DNA of 32,000 nucleotides, from assembly GCA_964514965.1 (NCBI GenBank), contig CAZETV010000001.1, forward strand, positions 390,001 through 422,000. The letters are read 5' to 3'. The notes beneath the pieces were generated by a model that did no database searches, was not told the DNA's origin, and was given only the letters and a program-made list of their open reading frames with translations. Position 1 is the first letter of the stretch. Every line of letters starts with the position of its first letter. The position numbers and the translations under genes were made by a program. This stretch comes from Candidatus Hadarchaeota archaeon (GTDB taxonomy: Archaea; Hadarchaeota; Hadarchaeia; Hadarchaeales; Hadarchaeaceae). Below, in pieces: positions 13,660 to 32,000 of the stretch.

Positions 13660-13711
13660 CTTTTAAGGGGGCTTATTTGAGCTAGTTTTTGCGATATCTA
13701 AACGAGACGTT

Positions 13712-14140: not shown

Positions 14141-14700
14141 CCTATCACCAAATCGGCCCCATAGAGCAGGATGTGTTTTCTGACGACATTGAGATAAAAC
14201 GGATCTTTTTCCTTGGCTTTCCTATTCCACTCTACGGGTTCCATGCATGTGACGAGAACCTCCTTCTTCGCCCACTTTTCGAGTTCTTTGAATGAACGTT
14301 TGTCCACTCCCCCGCGTTTAATGACTAAAAAATCAATATCACTCTTTTCATCGTGGGTTCCCTCCGCGCAGCTGCCGTATAACGCTAGAGATACAGTCCT
14401 AGAATTCCCTTCTAAAAAATGATCGAGAAACCCGAGTTCATTCAGCGCGAGGAGAAAATGCGCTTTTTTTAATTCTCTAACCAGTGGCAACTCGTTATTT
14501 AAGGAAAAAATTGTCAGGTTCCCGACTTTCTCTTTCGTCAAAATTCTATCCTCCTCAAATGTCTTGAGATATATCTGTGCCGTCCTTGGGCTTACTCCGA
14601 GCTTGTGGACAAGTTCCTTGAAGTAGATTTTGGTGCTAGGATGAGTGAGGAAGAACTCAAGGATTACCCAGCCTTTGAATTTCCTGAATTCTCGTAGCAT
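14137..14700 (-). CDS. Minimal nucleotidyltransferase (MNT) with N-terminal winged-helix DNA-binding domain
   Basis: NTase motif LALYGSCAEGTHDEKSDIDFLVI. N-terminal wHTH-like FKELVHKLGVSPRTAQIYLKTFEEDRIL. Confidence 0.8.
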   Translation of the reverse strand: MLREFRKFKGWVILEFFLTHPSTKIYFKELVHKLGVSPRTAQIYLKTFEEDRILTKEKVGNLTIFSLNNELPLVRELKKAHFLLALNELGFLDHFLEGNSRTVSLALYGSCAEGTHDEKSDIDFLVIKRGGVDKRSFKELEKWAKKEVLVTCMEPVEWNRKAKEKDPFYLNVVRKHILLYGADLVIG

Positions 14701-15665: not shown

Positions 15666-15954
15666 TGCGAATGTATCGTTTTCAGCTTTGGAATTAGATG
15701 ATATAATAACTGGAAAAATGCGAAACCAAGCTCAGGTATCGATGAACCGCCTTTTTCAGATACAGCTGGCATTGACATCGTGATGAATTACCAGAATTCC
15801 ATAAATTCTAAAAATAGAGCACCTGCGCCAAAAGGATAACCTCAAGAGGTGAACTCGGAGAGTCAAAGTTACACTTGCTCTCTCAAAAAAAATCCGAGAC
15901 TAAAGCGTTATTAAGAGGTACTAAAAATTGACATCGGACTCATGGGGTGACAAA

Positions 15955-17052: not shown

Positions 17053-17056
17053 ACGC

Positions 17057-18070: not shown

Positions 18071-18101
18071 CTCCGCCTTAGGGTCACCCAAGTAAGAAAA
18101 C

Positions 18102-18157
18102 CTTGTTACTAAAATAACAAGATATTTATATAGTTCTTGTTAGTCACATAACAAGAA
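18102..18157. repeat. Two related perfect palindromes flanking a TATA-like element
   Basis: CTTGTTA-ctaaaa-TAACAAG (18102-18121), then ATATTTATATAG (18122-18133), then TTCTTGTTA-gtcaca-TAACAAGAA (18134-18157). Both share the core CTTGTTA-N6-TAACAAG. Centres are about 34 bp apart. Confidence 0.7.
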
Positions 18158-18216
18158 TGCAACTTCGTTTACAAAATCACGGTGAGAAAGCCTCCGACTT
18201 CCTGAAGTGGCCGAAT

Positions 18217-18444
18217 CTACACTAATTTTATGAACTCTTCCCTTGTTAGGCCAGACTGTCTGATGATTTCGAGTAAAGTGCCCCTGTCTATTTCTTTATG
18301 ATAAGGAACGACAACACCTTTCTTCTTGCCCTCCACGAATTTGACAAGAATAACGTGGCTACCTTTCCTTCTCGCTACTTGGAATCCGATTTTGGAAAGG
18401 GTCCTAATGACATCTTTACCCGACAGCACCGGTAGCTTTTTCAT
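18217..18444 (-). CDS. hicA: HicA-family mRNA interferase toxin
   Basis: MKKLPVLSGKDVIRTLSKIGFQVARRKGSHVIL... is a typical YcfA/HicA dsRBD-like sequence. The ATG at 18444 is preferred over 18456. Confidence 0.85.
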   Translation of the reverse strand: MKKLPVLSGKDVIRTLSKIGFQVARRKGSHVILVKFVEGKKKGVVVPYHKEIDRGTLLEIIRQSGLTREEFIKLV

Positions 18445-18646
18445 GCCTAACGCCAAATCTCGTGATTATCATTGGTTCACCGCCGACCTCTTCTGGTAAC
18501 CCCATCTCTTCTACGTACAGCTCGGCGGCCTCCTTCAAATTTCCCAACGCCTCCTCAACCGTGTGTCCCTGGCTGGCGACATCCAATTCTGGGCACAGGG
18601 CCACGTATTGTTTTTCGCCTTTTTTGATTATCGCGGTCAACTCCAT
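18416..18646 (-). CDS. hicB: HicB-like antitoxin (UPF0150 family, no obvious DNA-binding extension)
   Basis: MELTAIIKKGEKQYVALCPELDVASQGHTVEEALGNLKEAAELYVEE. It overlaps hicA by 29 nt. Confidence 0.8.
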   Translation of the reverse strand: MELTAIIKKGEKQYVALCPELDVASQGHTVEEALGNLKEAAELYVEEMGLPEEVGGEPMIITRFGVRHEKATGAVG

Positions 18647-18785
18647 AGCTCCACCCCTGAAAATTGACACTTGGAACCACTTAAAGTTTTCTGGATTGGG
18701 TCAAGCAATGCCGAAATTGTTTTCCATGAAAGCTTTTCCCAAAAGGGTTTTTCCAATGAACGCTGTTTGTAAACTGATGATGGGC

Positions 18786-19934
18786 ATGAGGATAGCATAC
18801 GTTCACGACGCGATTTATCCTTTCGTGAAGGGCGGCGCCGAGAAGCGGATGTACGAGTTCTCCCGTCGTCTGGTAAAGCGTGGGCATGAGGTTCACGTAT
18901 TCGGCATGCGGTGGTGGGGCGAAGAGCCTGAGATCGAGCGGGAAGGGGTTCACCTCCACGGGGTCTGCAAAGCCGTCCCACTCTACTCCAGAGGGCGGAG
19001 GTCGATCAGGGCAGCGATGACGTTTGCTAGGAGCGTCCTGCCGGAACTCATTAAGAAGAAATTCGACGTGATAGACTGCTACCAAGCGCCTTACCTCCAC
19101 GCTTTCCCAACGAAAATCGGCGCCCTTTTGAAGCGAACACCTCTGGTGGTCACATGGCATGAAGTATGGCGTGGGTACTGGCGGGAGTACCTCGGGTCGC
19201 TTGGCGCTGTGGGGAGGCTCATGGAGAAGACGATTTTGCTCGGATTGGCGGACAGGGTCGTCGCGGTTTCCGACCAGACGAAAGACGACTTGGTTTCATT
19301 GGGCGTGAGCGTGGACAAAATAAGCATCATCCCGAACGGAATTGATTTTGATGATATCTCAAAAGTGTTGCCATCACCAGAGAAGCTCGATGCAGTTTAT
19401 CTGGGGCGGCTGATCAAGCCCAAAAATGTCGATATACTGCTCAGGGCCGGTGCTGCCTTGAAGAAGGAACTCCCAGGGTTGAAGATCGGGATAATCGGGG
19501 ACGGGCCCGAGAGGAAGAACCTTGAAGATTTATCAACGGAACTCGGCATCAGGGATAATGTAATGTTTTTCGGTTTTGTGGAGAACTTTGACGAAGTCGT
19601 GGCACTGATGAAATCGTCAAAAATTTTCGTTATACCATCAACACAGGAGGGCGGGGCGAGCATAGTGACGCTCGAAGCAAACGCCTGTGGCTTGCCGGTA
19701 ATCGCTGCCGACCATCCGCTCGGTATAGACAAGCGGCTAATCCCAACTGACGTAACCGGCTTCTTCGTTAAATTGACACCAGAAGATTTCGCTAAAAAAA
19801 TTCAGATGCTCCTAAAGGACGAAAAATTGAGAAGCGAGATGAAAGCTAACGCGATAAAGTTCGCGCAGCGCTACGATTGGGGAGGAGTAACAAGCGAGAT
19901 AGAGACGGTTTACAAACAGAAATACCGAAGATAG
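18786..19934 (+). CDS. Family 4 (GT-B) glycosyltransferase
   Basis: MRIAYVHDAIYPFVKGGAEKR start and the EX7E region PSTQEGGASIVTLEANACGLPVIA. The 5' 324 nt of the listed 490-aa ORF are antisense to hicB and are rejected. Alternative ATGs lie at 18777 and 18780. Confidence 0.85.
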   Translation: MRIAYVHDAIYPFVKGGAEKRMYEFSRRLVKRGHEVHVFGMRWWGEEPEIEREGVHLHGVCKAVPLYSRGRRSIRAAMTFARSVLPELIKKKFDVIDCYQAPYLHAFPTKIGALLKRTPLVVTWHEVWRGYWREYLGSLGAVGRLMEKTILLGLADRVVAVSDQTKDDLVSLGVSVDKISIIPNGIDFDDISKVLPSPEKLDAVYLGRLIKPKNVDILLRAGAALKKELPGLKIGIIGDGPERKNLEDLSTELGIRDNVMFFGFVENFDEVVALMKSSKIFVIPSTQEGGASIVTLEANACGLPVIAADHPLGIDKRLIPTDVTGFFVKLTPEDFAKKIQMLLKDEKLRSEMKANAIKFAQRYDWGGVTSEIETVYKQKYRR

Positions 19935-19940
19935 TACATT

Positions 19941-20990
19941 TCAAATAACGCTTTTTAACATCCCTCTTATTTCATCTTTACTGAGCAGGCGCGCATCTTT
20001 TGAAACCAATCTTTTCCTTTTCGCCGCGAGATACTCTTTAGTAAGCGGTTTGTGTACTATCTTGCCTGGTTTTTTAAGCACGACATCCGGCAACTCGACC
20101 GGGGGCTTGACTATAAACATTTCTCCTGTTTCCTGAACCCACACCGATTCCTCTTCGGTCATCAGCTCCTCGTGGAACTTCTCACCAGGCCGAATCCCAA
20201 TGATTTTAGTTTTCACTTCGCTTGGGACATGCCCGTATCCCGGCGCAAGCTCTTCAATCATAGCCTCTGCCAGATCGCCTACGCGCACAGCCGGCATTTT
20301 GAAAATGAAAACTTCACCGCCATCGGACATCTGCGTGGCTTTCAGAACCAACTCCACCGCCCGCTGCATCGTCATCACAAATCTAGTCATGTTCGGATCA
20401 GTGACGGTGACAGGCCCCCCCGCGCTTATCTGTTTCACGAAAACCGGGATAACGGATCCGCTCGACCCCAGCACGTTTCCAAATCTCACGCACGATATGG
20501 CTGTTTTCCTAGGCCCCTTGTAGTAGTTTGCTGATATAGTGAGTTTTTCCGCGAGCATTTTGGTGGTACCCATCACGCTTACAGGATTCACGGCCTTGTC
20601 CGTACTTATAGTTATGAACTTCTCGACTTCCTCGTCTATTGCAGCCTCTATGACATTTTGAGTACCAAGCACATTCGTTTTCACGGCTTCGAACGGATTG
20701 TACTCGCAAGACGGAACGTGCTTTAGCGCCGCGGCATGAAAAACTACGTCTATGTTTTCCATCGCCCGTTTTATCCTCTCCTTGTCTCGCACGTCCCCCA
20801 CGAGAAATCGAATGTTCGGGGTGGGCAACAATTCATTTGCAAGTTCGAACTGTGCCTCCTCATCAATGTCCAGTATCCTCACTACCCCGGCCCTGTAGCT
20901 CAGAAGCTTTCGGGCAATTTCGCTGCCGATCGACCCTGTGCCCCCCGTTATCAGGATATTCTTCCCCCTGAAAAAATCGCCCAACATCAC
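19941..20990 (-). CDS. UDP-GlcNAc 4,6-dehydratase, short CapD/PglF/WbpM-like SDR
   Basis: NILITGGTGSIGSE Rossmann motif and HAAALKHVP. The catalytic segment reads SVMGTTKM, with Met where PseB/FlaA1 has the Tyr of YGATK. Confidence 0.8.
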   Translation of the reverse strand: MMLGDFFRGKNILITGGTGSIGSEIARKLLSYRAGVVRILDIDEEAQFELANELLPTPNIRFLVGDVRDKERIKRAMENIDVVFHAAALKHVPSCEYNPFEAVKTNVLGTQNVIEAAIDEEVEKFITISTDKAVNPVSVMGTTKMLAEKLTISANYYKGPRKTAISCVRFGNVLGSSGSVIPVFVKQISAGGPVTVTDPNMTRFVMTMQRAVELVLKATQMSDGGEVFIFKMPAVRVGDLAEAMIEELAPGYGHVPSEVKTKIIGIRPGEKFHEELMTEEESVWVQETGEMFIVKPPVELPDVVLKKPGKIVHKPLTKEYLAAKRKRLVSKDARLLSKDEIRGMLKSVI

Positions 20991-22123
20991 GACTCCTCGA
21001 AGAAGGTTTCAACCGCTTTTGTTATATAATCCATATCCTTCCGCGTCAGGGCGGGATAAATCGGCAGGGACAAAACTTGTTTTGATATCTCTTCGGTCAC
21101 GTGCAGCTCGGTTTTGTAGCCCAATTTTTTCCTGTAGAAGTAGGTTAGGTGAACCGGATAGAAAAAAACCTTGGTCATGATACCTTTCTTGGCGAGGTAC
21201 TCAGAAAGGGTGTCCCTGCGTCCGTCCTTCACCCTGATCGTGTATATTTGATACACGTGGAAATAACCTTCAGAAGGTGATGGGGGAATCACCCCTTCAA
21301 CCTCATCTAATTTTTTAGTGAGGTACTCCGCGTTTTTTCTTCTCATTTTAATTATCTTGTCAACCTTCTTGAGCTGTGCGACGCCGAGTGCCGCGGTTAT
21401 GTTGGACATTCTGAAATTGTACCCCAAATCGATGTAATCTGCGTATTCAGGTGAAGTGAAGTAATCGCTATTCTCAGGCCTGCCATGCGATCTGATGAGT
21501 TTCAACTTTTCACTAATCTCTTTTGAGTCGGTCACTACTGCCCCACCCTCACCCATCGTGATAACTTTATTCTGACAGAAGCTGAGTACCGCCGCATCGC
21601 CGAAAGCGCCGACCTTCTTGCCGCCAACCATCGCGCCGAACGCCTCCGCGGCGTCCTCTATCAAAAGTAGATCATTATCCTCGGCGATTTCCCTCAATTC
21701 CCGTATCAAACAAGGGGAACCTCCATAATGAACAGGGATAATCGCTTTTGTTTTCCCCGTTATTTTTTCTTTCACATCTTCTGGATCCAGTCCGTACGTT
21801 TTTTCCTCGATATCTGCGAAGACCGGTTTCGCGCCAACAAACAAGGGGGAGTTTGCCGTCGCGATAAACGTGAAAGACGGGACGATCACTTCGTCTCCTT
21901 TTCCAATGCCATACGCCAGTAGGGCTGCGTGTAAAGCCGAGGTTCCAGAGTTGAAAACCACGGAATACTTCGCTCCGATATATCCAGAAATCCCCTTTTC
22001 AAACTCCTCAACATGTGGACCGATCGCCCAGTACATTCCCTTTTCTATGGCGTTTTTTACCGCTTGGACATCTTCCTCGTCCCAGAATATCTTAAACAAT
22101 GGGATTTTCCAATTTTGGGGCAT
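20987..22123 (-). CDS. DegT-family sugar 4-aminotransferase (PglE/LegC/PseC-like)
   Basis: FNSGTSALHAALLA and PLP-lysine region SFCQNKVITMGEGG. It overlaps the dehydratase gene by 4 nt. Confidence 0.85.
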   Translation of the reverse strand: MPQNWKIPLFKIFWDEEDVQAVKNAIEKGMYWAIGPHVEEFEKGISGYIGAKYSVVFNSGTSALHAALLAYGIGKGDEVIVPSFTFIATANSPLFVGAKPVFADIEEKTYGLDPEDVKEKITGKTKAIIPVHYGGSPCLIRELREIAEDNDLLLIEDAAEAFGAMVGGKKVGAFGDAAVLSFCQNKVITMGEGGAVVTDSKEISEKLKLIRSHGRPENSDYFTSPEYADYIDLGYNFRMSNITAALGVAQLKKVDKIIKMRRKNAEYLTKKLDEVEGVIPPSPSEGYFHVYQIYTIRVKDGRRDTLSEYLAKKGIMTKVFFYPVHLTYFYRKKLGYKTELHVTEEISKQVLSLPIYPALTRKDMDYITKAVETFFEES

Positions 22124-22130
22124 TTAACCA

Positions 22131-23471
22131 TCATTGTAATACATCGCCCAGCTTAAAATAATCTGAAGCTTGTTCTTCTTTTCGGAGTTTATTGATTATG
22201 ATGAAACCATCCACTGTTGTAACTTTGACTCCTCCTGACCCTGTTTTTCCAAAAATTAACCCAGGCAGCGGCGATATCCTTTTTCTGATATGTGGCAGAA
22301 TAGTTTCCTCTATTACTGTCTTTTCTCCCTTGTAATTGACAAACGCTCCTGGATACGGATACGCCAACGCACGTACCTTGTTGTGTATATCCAAAGCCCT
22401 TTCAAAGCGGAAATCGATGAGCCCATCATCCGGTCTTCTCCTCGGAAAATAACTTCCTTCAAAGGGGCTTTGGGGAATCGGTTTGACCTTCTCTTTCTTC
22501 AAAAGGCGGAGAGCTTTCAGGACCATCTGGGGAAAGCTAGGCAACCCCTTTAGCAATACATCTATTGCTCTTTCGTCTCTCGATACTCTCATAACTTTCT
22601 GAAGGATGATGGGTCCTCCGTCAATCACCTCCGTCATGAAATGAACAGTTATCCCGACGCTCCTTTCTCCGTTAATGATGGCCCAGTTTATGGGGGCCCT
22701 CCCTCGATACCATGGCAGGCACCCGAAGTGAATATTTATGATTTTATTTTCGAATTTTTTCAATATTTCCTCTCGGAGTATCTGGTGGTAGGAAACAACG
22801 ACGATATAGTCCAGGTCTATTTTTGTGATCTCTTTCAGAAATTCTGGAGAATTTACATCAGCGGGCTTAAAGACGAGCAGATTCAGTTCCTGTGCTACCG
22901 CCTCAAGGGAGTCATATACTCCAAACTTTGCAAACCTTTTGGATGCCTCCTTTTCCTTTCTGTTGAATTCGTCCGTTTCGGTCACGACTCCAACTACTAG
23001 ATAACTTTCCGAAACCAGAGCCGATAAGACCATGCATGCCCATTTTCCGTGTCCCATCAGGAGGATTTTCGCTTTATCGGCTTTGCTGGGCCCCCCCCCC
23101 ACCACAGCGCCTTCCGGAACGTCTTTGTTTACAAACGAACATGCTGCGACAGTCGCATTTTCGCCTATGGTTACTCCGGGCATAATCACCGTGTGGGATC
23201 CCACCTTGGCATTCCTCTTTATCGTGACCTTTCCATTCTTCCCATCAATTGTGGACTCGGAATAGATAGAGCAATGAGAACCTATTTGAACGTTTTCTTG
23301 GATATCAACCCCATACTTTGCGTTGATGTAAGTGAAGGCACCTATGTCGGTGTTTTTCCCCAGTTTCAGGTTTTCGTGATGCCGGCACATCCAGTTCCAC
23401 TTGGTCATTCCTTTCTCATCGAATTCTGGGGGTTTCCAATTTTTGAATCGCTTGTCCATAGTAACCATCAA
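22131..23471 (-). CDS. Fusion protein: N-terminal left-handed beta-helix (hexapeptide) acyltransferase plus C-terminal Fmt/ArnA-like formyltransferase (N and C domains)
   Basis: Residues about 40-135 carry hexapeptide repeats (IGSHCSIYSESTIDG, VGSHTVIMPGVTIGENATVAACSFV). Residues about 140-446 carry the formyltransferase core IINIHFGCLPWYRGRAPINWAIINGE...GITVHFMTEVIDGGPII. Confidence 0.8.
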   Translation of the reverse strand: MMVTMDKRFKNWKPPEFDEKGMTKWNWMCRHHENLKLGKNTDIGAFTYINAKYGVDIQENVQIGSHCSIYSESTIDGKNGKVTIKRNAKVGSHTVIMPGVTIGENATVAACSFVNKDVPEGAVVGGGPSKADKAKILLMGHGKWACMVLSALVSESYLVVGVVTETDEFNRKEKEASKRFAKFGVYDSLEAVAQELNLLVFKPADVNSPEFLKEITKIDLDYIVVVSYHQILREEILKKFENKIINIHFGCLPWYRGRAPINWAIINGERSVGITVHFMTEVIDGGPIILQKVMRVSRDERAIDVLLKGLPSFPQMVLKALRLLKKEKVKPIPQSPFEGSYFPRRRPDDGLIDFRFERALDIHNKVRALAYPYPGAFVNYKGEKTVIEETILPHIRKRISPLPGLIFGKTGSGGVKVTTVDGFIIINKLRKEEQASDYFKLGDVLQ

Positions 23472-24613
23472 TAGATAATTTTCTTCTGCAATAAAGATGG
23501 CGTGATTTCGATTTCAGCCAGTATTTTTACTATCCTCTGTGCGGCCCTTCCGTCACCATACGGATTTTTGCATTTTCTAACTTTTTCTCTAAATTTCTCG
23601 CCATAAAGTGCTTTTTTCACAGCGTTGACAATCTCTTTTCTCTCGTATCCAACATCTATTACATTCGTGGATCTTTCTCGCCCCGCTTGTCTAGTGCCTA
23701 TGTTGACGACAGGTAGGTGAAACGATGGTGCCTCGATGATTCCGCTGCTCGAGTTTCCAACCATAACATTCACTACCTTCATTAGGCCCAAATAATCGGC
23801 ATATGGGATACTCTTAAAGGATTTAATGAACGGATATTTTTCGTATTTTTTTATCATGTTTATCATCCTGCGCCCACCAGCATCCGCATTTGGGTAAATC
23901 AAAATTGTCTGGTGTTTAAGTTCAACAATTGCGTCCAGCGTCTCTTTTATCTGATGTGCCGCTTCGTTAGATTCTGTCACAACCGGATGCTGCAAAACCA
24001 ATAAAATAGGTTTCGATAAGTCGAGAGAATATTTTTTGGAGAGTTTGGTCCATTCTGGCAACTTTTCATTTAATATTGTATCTAAAGCGGGGGCACCAAC
24101 CACAAAAACTCTTGAAGGATCCTCACCCATTTTTATTATCCTGTTTGCGCTTTCTTGAGTAGCCGGGAAATGAATGTGTGCTAACTTGGTAATCACATGC
24201 CTAACTGAATCATCAACACCCCCGGAAACCTCTCCACCGTGTGAATGGGCTATCGGAATACCGATATATGACGCAGTAACTGCTCCAGCAAGCATTTCAG
24301 CTCTGTCCCCCAGGAGGACGAGAAAATCCGGTTTTGCCTTCTCCAATACTTCAGTCATTTTTTCGATGCATTTACCGATTGATTTCACCATCGCAACTCC
24401 GGTGTCCTCCGCATGAAGCATTTCTACTTTTGCATCGATTTTGAATCCATCTTTTCTTATTTCTTTGATTGTGTATCCAAATTCTCTTGAGAGATGCATT
24501 CCGGTCACTATAAGCACAAGTTCAAGACGCGGATGTGCCTTTATCGCTTTAAGCACTGGCTTCAGAATTCCGTATTCCGCCCGGGTACCGGTAAAAACGG
24601 CGATCTTTCTCAT
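23468..24613 (-). CDS. neuC: UDP-sugar 2-epimerase, hydrolysing (NeuC/LegG family)
   Basis: IAVFTGTRAEYGILKPV, HSHGGEVSGGVDDSVRH, VGNSSSGIIEAP. Confidence 0.85.
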   Translation of the reverse strand: MRKIAVFTGTRAEYGILKPVLKAIKAHPRLELVLIVTGMHLSREFGYTIKEIRKDGFKIDAKVEMLHAEDTGVAMVKSIGKCIEKMTEVLEKAKPDFLVLLGDRAEMLAGAVTASYIGIPIAHSHGGEVSGGVDDSVRHVITKLAHIHFPATQESANRIIKMGEDPSRVFVVGAPALDTILNEKLPEWTKLSKKYSLDLSKPILLVLQHPVVTESNEAAHQIKETLDAIVELKHQTILIYPNADAGGRRMINMIKKYEKYPFIKSFKSIPYADYLGLMKVVNVMVGNSSSGIIEAPSFHLPVVNIGTRQAGRERSTNVIDVGYERKEIVNAVKKALYGEKFREKVRKCKNPYGDGRAAQRIVKILAEIEITPSLLQKKIIY

Positions 24614-24614
24614 C

Positions 24615-25664
24615 CTATCCCGTCAATTTTTCAAACGTAATGGGCTCGTCCACCTTTATATCCTTCTTCGCCCTCTTTCCAATAACTTTTTTTAGATACT
24701 TAGGATTGAGACCTGTGCCCGACCTCTTGAGATCCAGCATATCCTCAGCTATCACGGTGCCTTTTGATATGTCCACCTTGGCCACTATGCTTCTCCTCAC
24801 GGCTTTCTTCATGGCCTCCTCACTTTCGGTTGGCCTCTTTACCCCATTCCCCAAGGCTTTTTCAACCTCTCTGATGTGCTCCACCATCTCCCTAAATTCG
24901 CCCGGTTCTAGGGAAGCTTTGTGATCTGGTCCCGGTAGTTTTCTATCTAATGTGAAGTGTTTTTCGATGATTGTTGCCCCCAAAGCCGCAGCCGCTATCG
25001 GAACGGTTGTGCCAACGGTATGGTCGGAGAGGCCTACCGATAACCCAAACATATGCATTAGGGTTTCCATAGCTCTAAGATTGGTCTCCTCAACTTTTGC
25101 AGGATAGTTGCTTACACAGTGGAGCAAAACAACTTCTTTCGCTCCCTCCTCCATTATCGTTTTCAGCGCCTCTTCGACCTCACCCAAATTTGACATGCCC
25201 GTGGACATGATTACCGGCTTTCCCTTTCTCGCTGCATGTTTGAGCAACGGGAGATTGGTTATCTCGCCAGATGGAATTTTGAATGCTGGTACTTTCAGCT
25301 CATCGAGAAAATCAATACTTTCCTCGTCAAATGCGGACGCCAAAAAGATGATATTTTTTTTCTTCGCGTAGCCAGAAAGTTTTTTAAAATCGTCCCTCGT
25401 CAACTCAAGTTTCTTCAACATATCGTGCTGGCTGCCTGCCCCCGTGCTCCTTTTTTGATACGCAGGTTTCTCGGCGGTCTTTGTGACCAACCGCTCGGCA
25501 CGAAAAATCTGAAACTTGACCGCGTCAGCGCCGGCTTTTTTTGCCGCGTCGATTAGCTTTTTAGCTAGGTCGAGTTTTCCGTTGTGGTTTACCCCGGCTT
25601 CCGCAATAATAAAACAGGACTTTCCCTCCCCTACCACCTTATTCGAGATTTTTACATTTTTCAC
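24615..25664 (-). CDS. neuB: Nonulosonic acid synthase, canonical NeuB/LegI type, with C-terminal SAF domain
   Basis: FIIAEAGVNHNGKLDLAKKLIDAAKKAGADAVKFQ, LSDHT, and SAF-like tail RSIVAKVDISKGTVI. Confidence 0.88.
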   Translation of the reverse strand: MKNVKISNKVVGEGKSCFIIAEAGVNHNGKLDLAKKLIDAAKKAGADAVKFQIFRAERLVTKTAEKPAYQKRSTGAGSQHDMLKKLELTRDDFKKLSGYAKKKNIIFLASAFDEESIDFLDELKVPAFKIPSGEITNLPLLKHAARKGKPVIMSTGMSNLGEVEEALKTIMEEGAKEVVLLHCVSNYPAKVEETNLRAMETLMHMFGLSVGLSDHTVGTTVPIAAAALGATIIEKHFTLDRKLPGPDHKASLEPGEFREMVEHIREVEKALGNGVKRPTESEEAMKKAVRRSIVAKVDISKGTVIAEDMLDLKRSGTGLNPKYLKKVIGKRAKKDIKVDEPITFEKLTG

Positions 25665-25698
25665 AAATTTTACCCCAGTCCATTTTTTTCAAATGTCG

Positions 25699-27012
25699 TC
25701 AGGCAAGCCTTTTGAAACCCGTGTGGGCAACGGGACCTCTCAACAATTTCCTGACCCTGCCACTCTCCGCTGCTTTCTTTATAATTTCAAACACTTCGCC
25801 GACATTCCTCAGATATTTCGATACGTGCGCCTTGGTATGGCTGTACGAAGCGTACAGGCTCTTCGAGGCTAGGAACCCCCTGTCCAACATCTCTTGGGTG
25901 AACAGCGTGTGCATGGCTTGGGCATCGTCGTGCTCGAACGCGAATGTGGTCAAGGGAGGTATTCCCATAGTTCTTATTTTCAGGTCGTGGGCATCCGCAA
26001 GTCTTTTCCAACCGTCGCTGACCAAATTTCCGATTTTGCACAGGTGTTTTGGCACATTATTTTTTCGCATTTTATTTATGGTGACGATGGAAGCCGCGGG
26101 ACCTATTCTATCGGTCCAATAGGTGCTACTTATGAAGCTCTCTTGGGCAACGTCCATGACTTCCCTCTTGCCCACCACCGCAGCCATTGGGAATCCGTTG
26201 CTCATGGCTTTCCCGTATACCGCGATATCTGGGTAGACCTTATACAGCGCGTGAATTCCACCAACATTCATACGCCATCCCGAGGTTATTTCATCGAATA
26301 TCAGGACAGCGCCGATTTCATCCGCAATTTTTCTAACTTTTTTCAGGAAATTGTTTTTTGGCTCTTGGTGCCTTATAGGCTCCATCGCTATCACGCCGAT
26401 GTCCTTATTTTTTGATACGATATTCTCTAGCTCTTCTATTTTGTTGTAGTTGAATGGGATCGATGTTCCAATCAGACACCTCGGAACGCCCTTGGGGTCT
26501 AATCCTGGAAGCAGATGCCCATCCAGATTCTTTTCGTTTGCCAAATTGGCTGAGAGATACCAATCATGCCAGCCGTGGTAACCACAAAATGCTATTTTGT
26601 CTCTTCCAGTATATGCCCGCCCAATCCTGATAGCTACCGCCATAGCCTCCCCACCTGTCTTCGTGTATCTCACCATGTTCGCCCACGGATTCAAACCCAG
26701 CAAAAGCTCCGCCAATTCAACTTCTTCGGGGCAGTTTAGAGTAGTCATCGGAGCCAAGTCTATCGCTCTTTTCACCGCTTCATTTACATCAGGGTCGGCA
26801 TATCCGAGCACACAGGCTCCGATGCCCATGTACGACATATCGATTAACCTGTTGCTATCAAGGTCCCAAATTTCGTCGCCCTTTGCCTTCTTGAAATAGG
26901 CCGGCCACTGCGCCGGAAGAAACATCTCAGAACGTTTAGAAAGCAACTGGGTCCCCCCAGGGATTACTTTTTTCGCAGCTTTCCACAACTTTGGGCCTTT
27001 TTTTATTTTCAC
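25699..27012 (-). CDS. Class-III PLP aminotransferase (glutamate-1-semialdehyde aminomutase-like)
   Basis: 437 aa. DLDSNRLIDMSYMGIGACVLGYADP, FDEITSGWR, and lysine region YGKAMSNGFP. Confidence 0.8.
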   Translation of the reverse strand: MKIKKGPKLWKAAKKVIPGGTQLLSKRSEMFLPAQWPAYFKKAKGDEIWDLDSNRLIDMSYMGIGACVLGYADPDVNEAVKRAIDLAPMTTLNCPEEVELAELLLGLNPWANMVRYTKTGGEAMAVAIRIGRAYTGRDKIAFCGYHGWHDWYLSANLANEKNLDGHLLPGLDPKGVPRCLIGTSIPFNYNKIEELENIVSKNKDIGVIAMEPIRHQEPKNNFLKKVRKIADEIGAVLIFDEITSGWRMNVGGIHALYKVYPDIAVYGKAMSNGFPMAAVVGKREVMDVAQESFISSTYWTDRIGPAASIVTINKMRKNNVPKHLCKIGNLVSDGWKRLADAHDLKIRTMGIPPLTTFAFEHDDAQAMHTLFTQEMLDRGFLASKSLYASYSHTKAHVSKYLRNVGEVFEIIKKAAESGRVRKLLRGPVAHTGFKRLA

Positions 27013-27014
27013 GG

Positions 27015-28025
27015 CTATCGCCCCGAAGCGAGGCTAATTTGTTTCCCTATTTCAGAACTCTTTTCGGCTGCGTATAAAATCTCCAATATTTTCTTATCAT
27101 CCTCAAAACTGTATGGGTATTTTTCTTTACCTTCTATCGCCCTGACAAATCTTTCCATCTCTTCTATGTACATTCTCTCCCCTATGATGTATCCTTTTTC
27201 CGGCTTGCCTTCTTCTGTTGAGTATTCCTCCCATTTTTTCTCTCCAGCTGTGAAAACTTTTACGACATTTGCGTTTCGATCCCATTCGATTGTTCCCTCT
27301 TCTCCGAGTAGCCGAAAAACACGAACTGGTGCTCTAGCTACTACGTCAACGAGCATGTGTCCAAGGGCACCGCTTTTGAATTTTAGAAGCACTTGATAAG
27401 TGTCATCGATGTCGACATCCAAATCCGATACTTTACCTTTTAAGCAAGATGTCGCATCCACATCTCCAAGCAACCAAGTTAACCACACAAGCTCGAAGGG
27501 GACTATCTCTCTAGCAGCTCCGGTGGTCCTCCTTGCGACGTAAAACTTCCTGTAGTCCTCCCACGGATGCCAATCTGGCAGGTATTGTCCAGAATGATAT
27601 GTAAATGCAAGTGGCTTGCCAACAGCGCGTTCGTCTACTAGTCCCTTTATTTTTTTGATTGCGGGGTGGAACCTCATTGTGCAGGACGGTGCCGCGACTA
27701 TTTTTTTACCCTTGATTAGAGAGATCAGCTTGCCCATTCCATCATTGACGACGCTCGCCTCAGTGAAGAAATGCTTGTTTTTTCGTGCTGCAATCATGGC
27801 ATATTTCATGTGCAAATCTGGCGGAGTGGAGATAATCAGAGCAGCCGGATTTTCAATCATGGCTTCTTCGAACTCTCCAAATGTTTTGATTTTATATTTC
27901 TCTTCGGCTTCCTTCCGCCTGTCCTCCCTGAGGTCGAATCCGATTATCTCACCTGCTTTAAGGTACTGCAAATTGCGGATGCGCCTTTTGCCCATCGAAC
28001 CTAACCCTACGACTAAAAACTTCAT
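27015..28025 (-). CDS. Gfo/Idh/MocA-family oxidoreductase (own start inside the 578-aa ORF)
   Basis: MKFLVVGLGSMGKRRIRNL Rossmann start, preceded on the minus strand by AAGGAGTGAACTGT-ATG (strong SD). The 336-aa length is typical of the family. Confidence 0.8.
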   Translation of the reverse strand: MKFLVVGLGSMGKRRIRNLQYLKAGEIIGFDLREDRRKEAEEKYKIKTFGEFEEAMIENPAALIISTPPDLHMKYAMIAARKNKHFFTEASVVNDGMGKLISLIKGKKIVAAPSCTMRFHPAIKKIKGLVDERAVGKPLAFTYHSGQYLPDWHPWEDYRKFYVARRTTGAAREIVPFELVWLTWLLGDVDATSCLKGKVSDLDVDIDDTYQVLLKFKSGALGHMLVDVVARAPVRVFRLLGEEGTIEWDRNANVVKVFTAGEKKWEEYSTEEGKPEKGYIIGERMYIEEMERFVRAIEGKEKYPYSFEDDKKILEILYAAEKSSEIGKQISLASGR

Positions 28026-28030
28026 ACAGT

Positions 28031-28751
28031 TCACTCCTTGATAGCATGGACTACTTTCCACGTTAAAACGATATTCCCGATTATTTGCAACTTCCCCGAT
28101 GTATAACTGCTGAACGGCAATTCCTTTTTTCTTTTCATCTTGATGTTGACTTCGTCTTCCAAGATTTCCACTTTCCCCGCTCCGACCGCCCTGAGATAAC
28201 CAGCGAACTCTTGAATAAATATTGTAAAACTCGTACGGCGCGTTTTGACTGTGTCCCTCCTTGTAAATTTTTATAATGTAAGTGAAATCGCCCAACAGAA
28301 GCCTGATGAAAAGGTGCTTCTTCGTAACTCTGGCAAGCTCTCTTACAGCTTTTTTCCAGTTTGGAATGAATGGAAGAACCATGTAACAGATAACAATGTC
28401 GTAAGAGTTATCCTCGATTTTTAAGTCGAAAATGTCTCCCTTGTCAACTCTAAAGTTTTTTTCCTTAGCAAAGACTGATCGAGCTAATTTTAGATAATGC
28501 TCTGAAACATCTACGCCATAGTAAGATATATTTTGGTCGATTTTTTTGAGCGAGGGGTAAAAATGACCAACACCGCAACCGACATCCAGGACCTTCATCC
28601 CGGGTTTGTACACCTCCCGCACGAGCTTGACTAGCTGTTTTACTTGCTCCATTTCCGGCTCCTGACCAAAGGCTCGCTTTTTCATTAATTCCCCGTACGC
28701 TCCCTCCTCCCATAGGCGCTCCCAAACTCTTTTGTTGCTCACAGGGTTCAC
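28031..28751 (-). pseudogene. Class-I SAM-dependent methyltransferase interrupted by a +1 frameshift (or assembly indel)
   Basis: Frame 0 gives motif I VLDVGCGVGH through ...PYEFYNIYS. The +1 frame then gives a far more protein-like C-terminus, QEFAGYLRAVGAGKVEILEDEVNIKMKRKKELPFSSYTSGKLQIIGNIVLTWKVVHAIKE*, ending at TGA 28033-28031 inside the downstream SD. The 721-nt span equals 240 codons plus 1 nt. Confidence 0.6.
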
Positions 28752-29509
28752 CCAATTTTTTTTAACTTGGGCTTAGCATGCTCTTTTAGCCTTGCCTCGT
28801 ACGCTTTTTGCACCTCTTGGTTTATTTTGGCGATTTCAGGATTTTCTTCGAGCAGTTTCACGACCTCTTTCAGCGGGATAATTTTGCCGGATTTGTAAAG
28901 TTTTTTGAAAACTGCTCTGAAAAATTCTAGGTCTTTAGGGTAGTCAAGCGTCATTCTGGACTCGGGATGTTTCAGGTCATCGCTCGCGTCCAAGTACTTT
29001 ACCTCGAAGAGACCAGTATCGACGAAGTAGCCTCCCCAAACTTCAGTATCAGCTTCTTCCTTGAGCTGGCAAACCCTCTCAAGAGCTTCCACTTTTATAC
29101 CGATGGGAACCGCGCCGACAGGGAAGCCTCGCCAGGCGATATAATCCGCGTTTGTTTCTTTAAAGTGGTCTATCGTCTGATCTACCAGTTCTGGGTCACA
29201 TAGTATGTCATCACCATCTATATTCACGATGAAGTCCAGTCCATATTTTTTCGCGGCTTTTAGATACCTGTCGAGTTTGTCTTCTGGACTACCTCTGAAG
29301 ACCTCGATATCATTTCTGCGTGCCACATCGACTAAGATATCGTCGTCTGGGTGAGTGGATGTACAAAGCACGACAAGGTCAGGGCGCTTCGCGGCCTTTG
29401 CACGATCCATGAGGTGCTCTATGGTCGTTCGTCCCTCTATCTCAAGTAACGCTTTTTTTGGCAATCTGGTCGACTTCATCCGCACGGTTATAAAAATAGC
29501 CGTTTTCAA
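28748..29509 (-). CDS. SpsF-type cytidylyltransferase (CTP_transf_3 family)
   Basis: FITVRMKSTRLPKKAL, VFRGSPEDKLDRY, NIDGDDILCDPELVD and RMTLDYPKDLEF are colinear with B. subtilis SpsF as I recall it. Confidence 0.75.
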   Translation of the reverse strand: MKTAIFITVRMKSTRLPKKALLEIEGRTTIEHLMDRAKAAKRPDLVVLCTSTHPDDDILVDVARRNDIEVFRGSPEDKLDRYLKAAKKYGLDFIVNIDGDDILCDPELVDQTIDHFKETNADYIAWRGFPVGAVPIGIKVEALERVCQLKEEADTEVWGGYFVDTGLFEVKYLDASDDLKHPESRMTLDYPKDLEFFRAVFKKLYKSGKIIPLKEVVKLLEENPEIAKINQEVQKAYEARLKEHAKPKLKKIG

Positions 29510-29520
29510 TCAATCACCGA

Positions 29521-30588
29521 TTAAATCACATTATCGGGGGTGATGGGGTCGTTTTTCTTCATGCTCTTGGCGGCGGTCTTGCCCAATAAGCGTTCGATTT
29601 CATCCGGAAAAATCCCTTCATCCGATCTTTTGAACGCCAGTTTATCGCGAGTTATCTTTTCCCCCTTTTGGATGTCCCTAGCCGCGACTGTTCGCTTTCG
29701 GGCAATCTCCCGGTATTCCCGCTCTGCTTTTGATAAGGGTCTTACATCGGAAAAACCAAACGCCTCCTCTATTTTCCTGAGGTTGACGACGAACTTTTTA
29801 AAGACAGGCGAATCGAGCGCAGATTCGAAGTCTTCGCCCCTCAGGTTCCTATCATGGGTAAGATGCTTTTCGATGACTTTTGCTCCGAATGCTAGTGCCA
29901 CGAGCGGAATGACGAGAGCTAGATCGGAGCCCCCATCCGTGTGGTCTGCAAAACCTATGGGAACTTGGAATTTTTGCTTCAGAGTTGGTATAAATTTCAG
30001 ATGCATGTCCTCCAGCTTAGTCGGATAGCTCTGGAACCCGTAAACCAGCACGAGATTTTCGTTGCCTTCTTCCTTCATCCAAGAAATGGCCCTCTCTACC
30101 TCTTCCATTGTGGCGCCACCCACCCTCAGAAACACGGGTTTTTCCTTCTTCGCCACTCCCCTCACGAGATTTTCCTCGGCGAGCGACGCCGGAGAGACCA
30201 CATAAGCATCCGCCTTTAGATTAGAAGCGAGACCAACACTCGGAAAGTCGTTGCACATCGCACATATTAGCAGCCCATTTTTTCTGGCGTACGGAAACAA
30301 CTCAGCCCAAGCCGCTGGAGCCAGGTTAATTCGGCTCAGATATTCGTAAATGGGCAGTGCTTCCTTGCCCGCTGATACGCGCCCTTTCCCAGTCCTGTAC
30401 TGCGGGACCATGTAATTTTCCATGAATGTGAGGTGAAAACAAATGGCGTCTGCCCTCGCATTGGCCGCTGCGTCTATTATCTCTTTCGCCTTTTCAACCG
30501 ACCCGTCATGTGACCATGCCATCTCCGCGATGACGAATGTGGGATGTTGATCACCTATCTTTCTTCTACCAATTCTTATTGTTTTCAA
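29521..30588 (-). CDS. Second, divergent NeuB-family synthase (SpsE/PseI-like) with SAF domain
   Basis: FVIAEMAWSHDGSVEKAKEIIDAAANARADAICFHL replaces the AEAGVNHNG...KFQ of the first copy. FADHT, plus SAF-like RTVAARDIQKGEKIT. Confidence 0.8.
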   Translation of the reverse strand: MKTIRIGRRKIGDQHPTFVIAEMAWSHDGSVEKAKEIIDAAANARADAICFHLTFMENYMVPQYRTGKGRVSAGKEALPIYEYLSRINLAPAAWAELFPYARKNGLLICAMCNDFPSVGLASNLKADAYVVSPASLAEENLVRGVAKKEKPVFLRVGGATMEEVERAISWMKEEGNENLVLVYGFQSYPTKLEDMHLKFIPTLKQKFQVPIGFADHTDGGSDLALVIPLVALAFGAKVIEKHLTHDRNLRGEDFESALDSPVFKKFVVNLRKIEEAFGFSDVRPLSKAEREYREIARKRTVAARDIQKGEKITRDKLAFKRSDEGIFPDEIERLLGKTAAKSMKKNDPITPDNVI

Positions 30589-31313
30589 ACTTCCACCTCG
30601 CTTTTGAACAACCCTGATTTCACTACAAATTCCGCCAATAAAAAGTCAAACTCATCGTCTATCCCAATAGAACTGATCCTGTCCATAATCAAACCTTTCA
30701 TGCTTTTGGGATTGAAACAAGGCGATTTTTCACTGACCCTATCGAAATACCTCCTCCGAGTGATTATCAGTCCATCGCTTATTCTGAAGAGTTTTGGTAA
30801 CTCTTGCCTGCGAAGTGGTTTGTTCATGCCTCCAATCAGCTCTTTCAAATTTCCCTCTTCATTCCTTTCGTAGACAAAATATGGGTGGTAACCCGACTCA
30901 ACCTCACACACACCTATAACTGAGTCAAAATCGGAGGTCAACAACATCCTCAACCCCGCGTTTATATGTTCATGAGTCCGAAACGGCGATGTCGGCTGAA
31001 GAAACGCCACGATTTCCGGATGATATCGCTCTTCTTTTTCAAGATAATGCAAGGCGTGCAGAAGAACGGAGAGCGAGGACGCCTCGTCCATCGCTAGCTG
31101 CTTGGGCCTCAAAAACGGAACTTCTGCACCATATTTTCTCGCTATTGCCGCTATCTCTTTGTCTTCAGTTGAAACTATGGTACGGTCGAGCTTGCTGCTG
31201 AGCGCGGCATCTATTGTGTAGCTGATTAGGGGTTTTCCTCCGAGGGGTCTGATGTTCTTTTTCTGGACCCCTTTAGACCCGCCTCTTGCAGGGATAATTC
31301 CGACCGCTAGAAT
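30585..31313 (-). CDS. neuA: CMP-nonulosonate synthetase (acylneuraminate cytidylyltransferase, NeuA/LegF type); proposed ATT start
   Basis: The listed ORF (TTG at 31112) lacks the N-terminus. Hand translation upstream in the same frame gives ILAVGIIPARGGSKGVQKKNIRPLGGKPLISYTIDAALSSKLDRTIVSTEDKEIAAIARKYGAEVPF with no ATG, GTG or TTG. ATT at 31313-31311 lies 7 nt after GAGGT. Confidence 0.7.
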   Translation of the reverse strand: MLAVGIIPARGGSKGVQKKNIRPLGGKPLISYTIDAALSSKLDRTIVSTEDKEIAAIARKYGAEVPFLRPKQLAMDEASSLSVLLHALHYLEKEERYHPEIVAFLQPTSPFRTHEHINAGLRMLLTSDFDSVIGVCEVESGYHPYFVYERNEEGNLKELIGGMNKPLRRQELPKLFRISDGLIITRRRYFDRVSEKSPCFNPKSMKGLIMDRISSIGIDDEFDFLLAEFVVKSGLFKSEVEV

Positions 31314-31318
31314 GGTAC

Positions 31319-32000
31319 CTACCTCTTTTTAAGGTCTGAAACAGGTACGTAGCACTTACTGCATATCGGGATTTCGGAATACCTGCTGGCGATATGGGCA
31401 CTTCGAATTTTTTCATATTTCTCGTTGTGCCAGATGTCCTTCAGTTTCTCTTTCCTAGCGTCTCCCATAATCGATTCCCTTTTGTTGTCGACACAGCATA
31501 AGGTGACGATACCATCCCACATTATGAACATTCGTTGGAACAGTTGAGCGCAGACGAAGTTTGGGTTGTAATATTCAGGATACCCCTTCCATTCTTTTGT
31601 ATAATCGATGAGTTCCCCGTAGCCTACTAGGTCTATCCCAAGCACCCCGAAACCAAATTTTTTGTAATCCTCAAGTTCCTCCCTCGGGTTCCCCATTACG
31701 ACCATTGAGGCCCGCGTCTGCACGTGTTTGTAGCCGAGTTCGTTCCTGAGTTCAACAAACTTCTTGATGTTGGCCACAACCCGTTGAAAGTCTGCCCCGA
31801 TTCTTATCTGGTTATATTTTTCCGGATAGGGAGAATCGACCGAGAAAAATATGCTGTCCAAACCGGCATCGAGAAGCTTGCGCGACATATCCTCCGTTAG
31901 GGCGACGGCATTTGTGTTGAACATGACCTCAATAACCCCCTTTTCCTTGGCGTAACTCACCTGTTCAACTACATCGGGGTGGATCAGGGGTTCGCCGAGA
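31319..32000 (-). CDS. Radical SAM enzyme with SPASM/twitch-like Cys-rich C-terminal domain, 5' end outside window
   Basis: The frame stays open to the window edge (…LGEPLIHPDVVEQVSYAKEKG). TIM-barrel radical SAM core motifs are present (NTNAVALT, FFSVDS). C-terminal cysteines: CAQL...TLCCVDN...ICSKC. Confidence 0.7.
   Translation of the reverse strand, partial: LGEPLIHPDVVEQVSYAKEKGVIEVMFNTNAVALTEDMSRKLLDAGLDSIFFSVDSPYPEKYNQIRIGADFQRVVANIKKFVELRNELGYKHVQTRASMVVMGNPREELEDYKKFGFGVLGIDLVGYGELIDYTKEWKGYPEYYNPNFVCAQLFQRMFIMWDGIVTLCCVDNKRESIMGDARKEKLKDIWHNEKYEKIRSAHIASRYSEIPICSKCYVPVSDLKKR

Follow-up and report, generated by a model that had tools for sequence, protein, structure and literature searches.

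A Hadarchaeota operon that joins a probable legionaminic-type pathway to a second module built around a divergent NeuB-like protein

Introduction

In many microbes nonulosonic acids cap the surface glycans and shape phage, host and immune recognition, and to our knowledge few types of biosynthesis have been described for them. Among the closest described systems, the legC-legB-legF-legG-formyltransferase-neuD...legI cluster of Halorubrum PV6 makes 5-N-formyl-legionaminic acid (PMC6137143), and in Bacillus subtilis the Met-x3-Lys of SpsM belongs to a uridine diphosphate (UDP)-N-acetylglucosamine (UDP-GlcNAc) 4,6-dehydratase that can be replaced by PglF (PMC7439481). The operon described here lies at 19941–32000 of a stretch of 32,000 nucleotides from a Candidatus Hadarchaeota archaeon (contig CAZETV010000001.1, positions 390,001 to 422,000), referred to below as the window, whose coordinates are used throughout. 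Its genes fall into two units, of which unit 1 appears to belong to a known pathway type, and the sequence points to an undescribed related sugar as the product of unit 2. The operon as a whole can be read as a source of surface-glycan precursors, with two units that would make two products activated with cytidine monophosphate (CMP), and we put the probability of this statement in its entirety at roughly 45%.

Organisation of the operon

Domain families were assigned by Pfam and NCBIfam scans, and the scores of NCBIfam equivalogs were read against each model's own cutoff. The region contains 11 large open reading frames (ORFs), every one on the minus strand, and 12 genes, since one ORF comprises two of them. 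The genes are lettered A to L in order of coordinate, and in this order the ORF junctions measure −4, +7, −4, +1, +34, +2, −4, +11, −4 and +5 nt. An earlier note on this DNA, made from the sequence alone, had described a tight, all-minus-strand layout with gaps of at most 34 nt, which these junctions bear out, and each of its family assignments is upheld by the Pfam and NCBIfam scans. What is observed directly is the gene content, the protein families, the state of the active sites and the degree to which gene order is conserved.

A legionaminic-type enzyme set

Gene A (19941–20990) encodes a UDP-GlcNAc 4,6-dehydratase of the short soluble PglF/SpsM/CapD type (PF02719, 370 bits), in which the stretch STDK...MGTTK (STDKAVNPVSVMGTTK) contains a Met-x3-Lys corresponding to M146/K150 of SpsM. 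Its score for the PseB equivalog is 337 (cutoff 407) and for LegB of the guanosine diphosphate (GDP) type, TIGR04180, 78.9 (cutoff 475); FnlA is also below cutoff. Gene B (20987–22123) encodes a DegT-family sugar 4-aminotransferase of the PglE/LegC/PseC class (PF01041, 398 bits) and is assigned at family level, as both specific equivalogs, PseC (323) and LegC (274), fall under their cutoffs.

Gene C combines two activities. Its N-terminal domain (23076–23471) is a small left-handed beta-helix N-acyltransferase resembling the C-terminal half of NeuD/PglD (Hexapep; TIGR03570, 64 bits, a match that covers model positions 115–202), and its C-terminal domain (22131–23069) is a formyltransferase with both Formyl_trans_N (PF00551, 104 bits) and Formyl_trans_C (PF02911, 44 bits), scoring 170 bits with NF005414 and 158 bits with ArnA. 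There is no stop between the domains, so that an acyltransferase of 130 residues is fused in frame to the formyltransferase; at the comparison loci L003, L040, L082, L009 and L010 the acyltransferase is instead a free-standing gene of 130–160 amino acids (aa). At a further locus, L080, an ATP-grasp ligase, a HAD hydrolase and a PIG-L deacetylase (15277–18728) are inserted between the first synthase gene and the acyltransferase gene, at the site where the window instead has the formyltransferase fused to the acyltransferase, and N-acyl decoration therefore appears to be the variable part of the cluster.

Gene D (23468–24613) encodes a UDP-sugar 2-epimerase of the hydrolysing NeuC/LegG type and not a WecB, as it scores 484.1 with TIGR03568 (cutoff 235.9) and 145.1 with wecB (cutoff 210). 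Gene E (24615–25664) encodes NeuB1, a canonical, LegI-like nonulosonic acid synthase with NeuB and SAF domains that exceeds the TIGR03569 cutoff (473.6 against 399.65) and has the canonical residue at all 17 of the active-site positions checked (signature ENHKQSKSESSYSHEHD); it is 42% identical to B. subtilis SpsE and 35% identical both to Neisseria meningitidis NeuB and to the pseudaminic acid synthase PseI. Both identifications had been made in the earlier note and stand. Gene K (30585–31313), which lies at the other end of the operon, encodes a CMP-nonulosonate synthetase of the NeuA/LegF/PseF type (PF02348, 86 bits), with a PseF equivalog score of 139.5 against a cutoff of 205.7.

Judged by family, genes A to E together with K (unit 1) make up a complete UDP-route legionaminic-acid-type enzyme set, as had been claimed: all six steps have enzymes, with the 4-aminotransferase, the N-acyltransferase and the CMP-transferase present at family level, their specific equivalogs being below cutoff. 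In the proposed route, A would carry out the 4,6-dehydration of UDP-GlcNAc and B the transamination at C4, the fused enzyme C would N-acylate with acetyl and/or formyl groups, D would combine hydrolysis with 2-epimerisation, NeuB1 would perform the condensation with phosphoenolpyruvate (PEP), and K would activate the product with CMP. The product of unit 1 is probably a legionaminic-type acid.

NeuB2 and its partner genes

Gene J (29521–30588) encodes a second, divergent NeuB-like protein, NeuB2, which consists of a TIM barrel and a SAF domain (PF03102, 172.6 bits; PF08666, 52.5 bits; signature ESHCHMVPSRQYAHEHD). On these domain matches the NeuB-like fold is certain, while both synthase equivalogs are missed (NeuB 233.2, cutoff 399.65; PseI 200.1, cutoff 340.25). 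Residues are given in N. meningitidis NeuB numbering, obtained from an alignment with PDB structures and an alignment of 128 sequences, and the NeuB2 clade is defined as 40 relatives of at least 40% identity in a neighbour-joining tree, in which these 40 sequences are monophyletic.

NeuB2 keeps E25, Y186, H215, E234, H236, D247 and R314, and of these the metal ligands H215 and H236, together with E25, E234, D247 and R314, do not vary among the 40 members of the clade. It carries the changes K53C, Q55H, T110M, K129V, S132P, E134S, S154R, N184Q and S213A. Across the clade, Q55H and N184Q are universal (40/40 each) and F112N nearly so (39/40), K129 is always replaced (by V, M, I or A in 36/40, by G once and by N once), and E134 is most often Cys (28/40); basic residues are gained at position 74 (K or R, 33/40) and position 154 (R, 27/40). 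All 64 other sequences with K53/Q55/K129, the three solved enzymes included, keep the canonical set. K53 and K129 are said to hold the PEP carboxylate, a finding reportedly due to Gunawan et al. in 2005. Residues Q55, T110, K129, N184 and S213 belong to the lining of the catalytic site of NeuB (PMC6795526), and E134 counts among the three glutamates for which a catalytic role has been proposed (PMC8208679). With K53, Q55, K129 and E134 replaced and the metal and sugar ligands kept, the alignment indicates that the donor side of the NeuB2 pocket is rebuilt and the metal and aldose side conserved.

The possibility that NeuB2 no longer binds a substrate and is a decaying duplicate is rejected, as the clade is large and monophyletic and has conserved residues of its own (H55, N112 and Q184) as well as the gained basic ones. 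A tblastn search of plasmids with NeuB2 gave no match at 1e-40.

NeuB2 is accompanied by gene I (28748–29509), which encodes a cytidylyltransferase of the SpsF type (COG1861; PF02348, CTP_transf_3, 67 bits). Its equivalog matches are weak and only of the KdsB type, and its best solved structure is 6oew, labelled 'cytidylyltransferase' (5e-24); its homologues bear the name SpsF in Joint Genome Institute (JGI) annotation, a source label that upholds the SpsF-type assignment at the COG level. The earlier note had gone further and equated the pair with SpsE/SpsF of Bacillus. This does not hold: identity to SpsE is 29% for NeuB2 and 42% for NeuB1, which is the SpsE-like copy of the two, and the NeuB2-SpsF pair is not an SpsE-SpsF pair because SpsE is canonical at K53, Q55, K129 and E134.

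Gene G (27015–28025) encodes a Gfo/Idh/MocA NAD(P) oxidoreductase (PF01408, PF22725 and PF02894) with weak equivalog matches to inositol 2-dehydrogenase and to archaeal UDP-GlcNAc 3-dehydrogenase. Gene F (25699–27012) encodes a class-III aminotransferase resembling glutamate-1-semialdehyde aminomutase (GSAM; PF00202, 133 bits), whose nearest solved structures are GSAM (1e-41), an aminopentol aminotransferase and aminoglycoside C-6' aminotransferases. Gene H (28031–28751) encodes a class-I S-adenosylmethionine (SAM) methyltransferase with Methyltransf_11/25/31 domains. Gene L (31319–32000) encodes a radical SAM/SPASM enzyme whose N-terminus is truncated at the window edge. L scores 81 bits with the spiro-SPASM model, the N-terminal half of which matches the SpsF-type protein and the C-terminal half the radical SAM enzyme, both below cutoff, giving a weak 'Rosetta stone' link between the two.

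The full-length homologue of L in a sister genome (L001, 92% identity) has Radical_SAM and SPASM domains, and 10 nt upstream of it lies a gene for a GT-B glycosyltransferase, so that the operon probably extends past coordinate 32000. The GT-B protein matches the BFO_1060 glycosyltransferase family (NCBIfam NF046086) and 'surface carbohydrate biosynthesis protein'. As BFO_1060 adjoins the legionaminic acid (Leg) locus BFO_1063-1074 of Tannerella forsythia (PMC5378307), the GT-B protein is a candidate nonulosonate transferase.

Conservation of the cassette in archaea and bacteria

One search returned 559 homologues of NeuB2 at E ≤ 1e-10. A protein 100% identical to NeuB2 is on record, and its 90% cluster includes KUO39434.1 of Hadesarchaea archaeon DG-33, whose contig (L001) is 92–97% identical over the shared genes, a kinship that agrees with the archaeal host deduced in the earlier note. 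A genome scan with a NeuB2 profile gave 79 loci, to which three metagenomic loci were added; the context counts below refer to the 48 loci with a gene of the NeuB2 clade, or to smaller denominators where given.

An SpsF-type gene lies directly downstream of NeuB2 at 42 of 44 loci, an oxidoreductase gene follows the SpsF-type gene at 28 of 42, and a class-III aminotransferase gene follows the oxidoreductase at 30 of 41, the order being invariably NeuB2-SpsF-oxidoreductase-aminotransferase. Within 10 kb of NeuB2, a NeuB1-type synthase is found at 27/48 loci, NeuC at 26/48, NeuA at 13/48 and a radical SAM enzyme at 15/48. The metagenomic contigs L082 and L080 have, at 67–83% identity to the operon, the order rSAM-NeuA-NeuB2-SpsF-oxidoreductase-aminotransferase-NeuB1-NeuC-hexapeptide-DegT-dehydratase, and the same 11-gene order recurs in Dehalococcoidales (L040) at 45–64% identity. 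The core cassette is also present in Legionella, Azospirillum, Nitrosotalea and Heimdallarchaeota. In Bacteroidota, Ignavibacteria, Aliarcobacter and gammaproteobacteria it sits inside a Campylobacter-style cluster with a PtmE-like CBS-nucleotidyltransferase, often with a CN-hydrolase and a short-chain dehydrogenase/reductase (SDR), and with no NeuA. Four carriers (Legionella moravica, L. bononiensis, Azospirillum soli and a Magnetospirillum sp. metagenome-assembled genome) have neither NeuB1 nor NeuC within 10 kb of the cassette, which suggests that it can work on its own.

Other archaea (Methanocalculus/Methanomicrobiales, Thermoplasmata and Bathyarchaeia) have a different divergent NeuB paralogue, in which K53 is kept and Q55H, K129E and E134S/G are found (L073, 8040–11050; also L047, L056, L063, L067, L068 and L078). 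Downstream of this K129E-type paralogue come an SpsF-type gene and, after it, a canonical NeuB-NeuC pair, and the combination of a divergent synthase with SpsF has therefore diversified several times. Since the gene order recurs in many bacteria and archaea, the two-synthase layout is common and no peculiarity of this genome. The earlier note had described a dual-synthase cluster that matches no known pathway; as a one-off this fails, and it stands in so far as no published characterisation of the second module was found.

At one alphaproteobacterial locus (L036, 13989–19137) the cassette is followed by genes for a methyltransferase, an unannotated 531-aa protein, an HpcH/HpaI pyruvate aldolase, a third CTP_transf_3 cytidylyltransferase and another Gfo/Idh/MocA enzyme, which brings the cytidylyltransferases in this cluster to three.

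Two proposed products and the alternatives

Unit 2 is taken to consist of J, I, G and F, with H and L as tailoring genes, and would make a second CMP-ulosonic acid with an extra amino group. NeuB2 would form the second keto-acid and the SpsF-type enzyme would add CMP; the Gfo/Idh/MocA enzyme would oxidise a hydroxyl and the class-III aminotransferase would convert the carbonyl to an amine, a role suggested by its nearest solved relatives, which include aminotransferases acting on sugar carbonyls. The methyltransferase, the formyltransferase and the radical SAM enzyme may provide variable decoration. Every substrate, the order of the steps and the identity of both products are proposed from sequence comparison. 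Two products are favoured because synthase and transferase genes are adjacent, the order is fixed and stand-alone cassettes exist; the kinship of F with aminotransferases of sugar carbonyls and, weakly, the spiro-SPASM link point the same way, and for the unit 2 part we rate the case as somewhat short of even.

Several points weigh against this reading. The 'legionaminic' product could be another 5,7-diamino isomer, since the stereochemistry of A and B is not readable from sequence, and with no deacetylase in the operon the position of the formyl group is not deducible; a deacetylase is present at L080 and L006, and the Leg cluster of Ca. Kuenenia includes one (bioRxiv 10.64898/2026.04.20.719630). 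NeuB2, having lost K53, Q55, K129 and E134, may not be a PEP-dependent synthase at all. The NeuB2-SpsF pair occurs without an oxidoreductase or aminotransferase at L003, L004 and L008, and bacterial loci with both NeuB1 and NeuB2 mostly have one cytidylyltransferase, of the SpsF type, so that one product fits them better than two. No characterisation of the cassette was found in the literature on a class-III aminotransferase with an oxidoreductase, a cytidylyltransferase and NeuB; the nearest match was a serogroup comparison of Legionella pneumophila, whose gene set is related without being the same. In a large phylogenetic survey of these synthases the NeuB2 clade is not set apart as a group of its own (PMC8208679).

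If NeuB1 made the only nonulosonic acid and unit 2 tailored it, NeuB2 would be a non-synthase binder of the nine-carbon acid, G and F would supply another amine, its third, and the final CMP activation would fall to either NeuA or the SpsF-type enzyme. The rebuilt donor site with its retained sugar and metal ligands agrees with such a role, as does the presence of only an SpsF-type cytidylyltransferase at most two-synthase loci; bacterial cassettes such as L016, L029 and L034 resemble the canonical Campylobacter-type legI-legG-ptmE-ptmF-legF-ptmA cluster (PMC4481668) enlarged by NeuB2, a class-III aminotransferase and a CN-hydrolase, and Ca. Kuenenia tailors at the level of the CMP-sugar (bioRxiv 10.64898/2026.04.20.719630). 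A single product, the main alternative, is nevertheless unlikely, because several genomes have the cassette with neither NeuB1 nor NeuC within 10 kb and the strict adjacency of NeuB2 and SpsF is the classic arrangement of a synthase and its activator. Moreover, we know of no NeuB-fold enzyme with a non-synthase role, which also counts against it. A role in precursor supply, in which G and F (with I) would not act on a nine-carbon acid and would make and activate a dedicated hexosamine pool, much as PtmF, PtmA and PtmE of Campylobacter jejuni feed GDP-GlcNAc into the legionaminic pathway, has points in its favour: PtmF and PtmA are annotated in Leg clusters as a 326-aa oxidoreductase and a 254-aa protein (PMC4481668), their sizes and positions match those of the Gfo/Idh/MocA enzyme and the SDR (family f8) beside PtmE-like genes at L016, L023, L029 and L032–L035, and CMP-linked species resembling N-acetylhexosamine and lacking a keto-acid occur in Magnetospirillum (bioRxiv 10.64898/2026.04.20.719630). 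The window operon, however, is without a PtmE-like gene (family f10) and its dehydratase is of the UDP type (LegB 79 bits against 475), SpsF-type enzymes and PtmE co-occur, so that SpsF does not replace PtmE, and NeuB2 is left unexplained; we therefore regard precursor supply as quite improbable.

The remaining alternatives concern unit 1. NeuC, NeuB and NeuA suffice for N-acetylneuraminic acid (Neu5Ac), and A, B and C equal PglF, PglE and PglD, so that two unrelated sugars, Neu5Ac from NeuC-NeuB1-NeuA and a bacillosamine-type UDP-2,4-diamino-2,4,6-trideoxyhexose from A-B-C, might be made, the more so as TIGR03569 and TIGR03568 do not separate Neu from Leg enzymes. This division is improbable to a slightly greater degree than the supply of precursors, given that NeuB1 shares more with SpsE (42% identity) than with the NeuB of N. 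meningitidis (35%), that the Neisseria enzyme has its nearest neighbour in a separate third synthase carried at L004 and L007, and that the same six co-linear genes serve legionaminic acid synthesis in Halorubrum and Bacillus (PMC6137143, PMC7439481). A pseudaminic acid pathway, to which the best equivalog matches of A, B and K (PseB, PseC and PseF) might point, is as good as refuted, since PseG and PseH are missing: the Pfam scan found no Glyco_tran_28_C or GNAT domain among the operon proteins. The PseB, PseC and PseF matches are all below cutoff, as is that to PseI, and the hydrolysing 2-epimerase is unused in the pseudaminic (Pse) route. PseB has Tyr where A has Met. The Met of A stands in a Met-x3-Lys context (PMC7439481). 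The earlier note's argument against pseudaminic acid is supported.

The two-product reading may bear on a set of unassigned metabolites. A 2026 preprint reports C10 CMP-ulosonic acids from Magnetospirillum gryphiswaldense that have been neither assigned nor linked to a gene cluster (bioRxiv 10.64898/2026.04.20.719630), and their masses equal, by computation, CMP-Leg5Ac7Ac + C2H3N + 0–2 CH2. We tentatively suggest, with more doubt than attaches to unit 2 itself, that the cassette makes a new CMP-ulosonic acid (for example tri-amino or chain-extended) by means of a NeuB fold without the canonical PEP machinery, and that it does so widely in uncultured archaea and in many bacteria. Such an acid could also explain the C10 compounds; this is a lead and no evidence, because the masses fit an extra amine plus acetyl and, equally, acetamidino plus O-acetyl.

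What the operon offers in any case is a subsurface archaeon with a full legionaminic-type route, judged by family, and a view of a large, conserved cross-domain family of NeuB-like proteins, whose active site is rebuilt and which each come with a predicted activating enzyme of their own. If the suggestion is true, the new acid would be a widespread surface component of Hadesarchaea, Thaumarchaeota, Heimdallarchaeota and many bacteria. Cultured carriers of the cassette exist (Nitrosotalea devanaterra, Legionella moravica, Azospirillum soli and Skermanella stibiiresistens), and the product can therefore be sought directly and the enzymes assayed.

Reading frame of gene H and start codon of gene K

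The stretch 27015–28751 is a single 578-aa ORF that spans methyltransferase H and oxidoreductase G; this ORF is two genes, and the families named in the earlier note are right. Gene G has its own ATG at 28025, with AAGGAG 8 nt upstream. The C-terminus of H (its last ~60 residues) is found in another frame that ends at 28031, 5 nt before the ATG of G, and this peptide aligns end-to-end with the C-termini of the L032 and L035 methyltransferases (z = 3.7–3.9 against shuffles). Local alignment with shuffling was positive for two of three homologues, and the frameshift is invisible to BLAST. Gene H thus appears to have a 1-nt frameshift near 28210, in a T/A-rich stretch (TATTTATTCAAGAG), which fuses it artificially with G; this may be real, making H a pseudogene, or an assembly indel.

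Gene K has no ATG, GTG or TTG ahead of its essential IIPARGGSKG motif. An ATT at 31313, 7 nt after GAGGT, is from the sequence the only plausible start, at the position given in the earlier note, where the codon is non-canonical. In relatives the same position is occupied by ATT in L001 and by ATA in L080 and L082, and in all four genomes this Ile codon lies 4–7 nt past a GAGG-like site and five codons ahead of GIIPAR (window, 31311–31325; L001, 9266–9285; L080, ~9260–9280; L082, ~9262–9282). The annotated starts in L080 and L082 are a later GTG, which loses the GIIPAR motif. The start of K looks like a conserved near-cognate AUU/AUA codon, or else re-initiation after the radical SAM stop.

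Base composition and neighbouring genes

The guanine-cytosine (GC) content of the operon is 46.4%, whereas the remainder of the window has 50.5% and the block of housekeeping genes at 3300–13527 has 52.9%; the means of 60-nt lines are 0.465 in the operon and 0.505 in the rest (Mann-Whitney p = 1e-10). The four lines counted by hand for the earlier note (43.3, 41.7, 33.3 and 36.7%) are exact and unrepresentative. The operon is AT-richer, as claimed; the difference is not sharp, and the lowest GC of the window, at 1001–2000 and across 1083–2700 (0.37–0.44), lies outside it. Being small, the contrast is weak evidence for the horizontal acquisition that had been suggested from it, and synteny with Chloroflexi across the domain boundary is better: the Dehalococcoidia loci L003 and L040 share 45–67% identity with the operon and L040 has its order. 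That an archaeal operon shares gene order and up to 67% protein identity with Chloroflexi clusters suggests horizontal exchange between bacteria and archaea, and we take the cassette to be ancient.

On the plus strand, at 15928–19934, a trio of genes for a DegT aminotransferase, a Gfo/Idh/MocA oxidoreductase and a GT4 glycosyltransferase converges on the operon and ends 6 nt from A. At the alphaproteobacterial loci L033 and L036, homologues of the trio oxidoreductase follow the NeuB2 cassette at a distance of a few genes, and the two clusters may therefore be functionally linked. Other ORFs of the window, recognised by eye from their translations, are typical of archaeal housekeeping (Nep1, S19e, eIF6, prefoldin, FtsY and GatA/GatB), and Pfam identifies elsewhere in it a phosphohexomutase, an Lrp/AsnC regulator and a HEPN/nucleotidyltransferase pair. 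The latter, at 13712–14700, consists of a HEPN protein and a minimal nucleotidyltransferase overlapping by 4 nt, is toxin-antitoxin-like with a GC content of 0.44–0.47, and sits between a tRNA and a creatininase-family gene. The tRNA (13570–13660, 91 nt) is called tRNA-SeC with anticodon TCA by ARAGORN and matches only the general tRNA model of Rfam (45 bits); it could be a selenocysteine, a long-variable-arm or an intron-containing archaeal tRNA. The low-GC stretch has tandem Lrp/AsnC-type paralogues at 1443–1871 (Pfam-scanned) and 2087–2530, followed by a tRNA-Gly at 2765–2841. The ORF at 2698–3984 begins by reading through this tRNA, and the real Nep1-like gene therefore starts later.

Comparison with known systems

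Halorubrum sp. PV6 (HrrPV6_1046-1053) shares with the operon an archaeal set of dehydratase, DegT aminotransferase, LegF, LegG, formyltransferase, NeuD-like acyltransferase and LegI. In contrast to the operon, its formyltransferase and acyltransferase are separate genes, and it has no second NeuB-like, SpsF-type, Gfo/Idh/MocA, class-III aminotransferase or radical SAM gene. The sps genes of B. subtilis (SpsM, C, D, G, E and F; PMC7439481) likewise follow the UDP route with a Met-x3-Lys dehydratase, with an SpsF of the same COG as gene I and an SpsE that is 42% identical to NeuB1. They differ in having one synthase, which is canonical, and one transferase.

A Campylobacter GDP-route legionaminic cluster with PtmE, PtmF and PtmA was reportedly described by Schoenhofen in 2009. 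In the GDP-route Leg clusters of C. jejuni and Plesiomonas (PMC4481668), PtmE, PtmF and PtmA hold the positions at which the bacterial relatives of the cassette have a PtmE-like protein, an oxidoreductase and an SDR; the window operon lacks both PtmE and a LegB-type dehydratase, whereas neither NeuB2 nor the class-III aminotransferase is part of the canonical cluster. The Leg cluster of Ca. Kuenenia stuttgartiensis (bioRxiv 10.64898/2026.04.20.719630) resembles the operon in its two cytidylyltransferases and its formyltransferase, and differs in its deacetylase, in a single reported neuB and in that no pair of oxidoreductase and class-III aminotransferase is described. The CMP-sugars of this organism are modified with formyl, free-amine and methyl groups. 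The succession proposed for G and F has a likeness in the Kdo8N pathway of Shewanella, where an ulosonic hydroxyl is reportedly oxidised by KdnB and then transaminated by KdnA; these enzymes are said to belong to unrelated families (an iron alcohol dehydrogenase and another class of aminotransferase) and to act towards an eight-carbon sugar of lipopolysaccharide.

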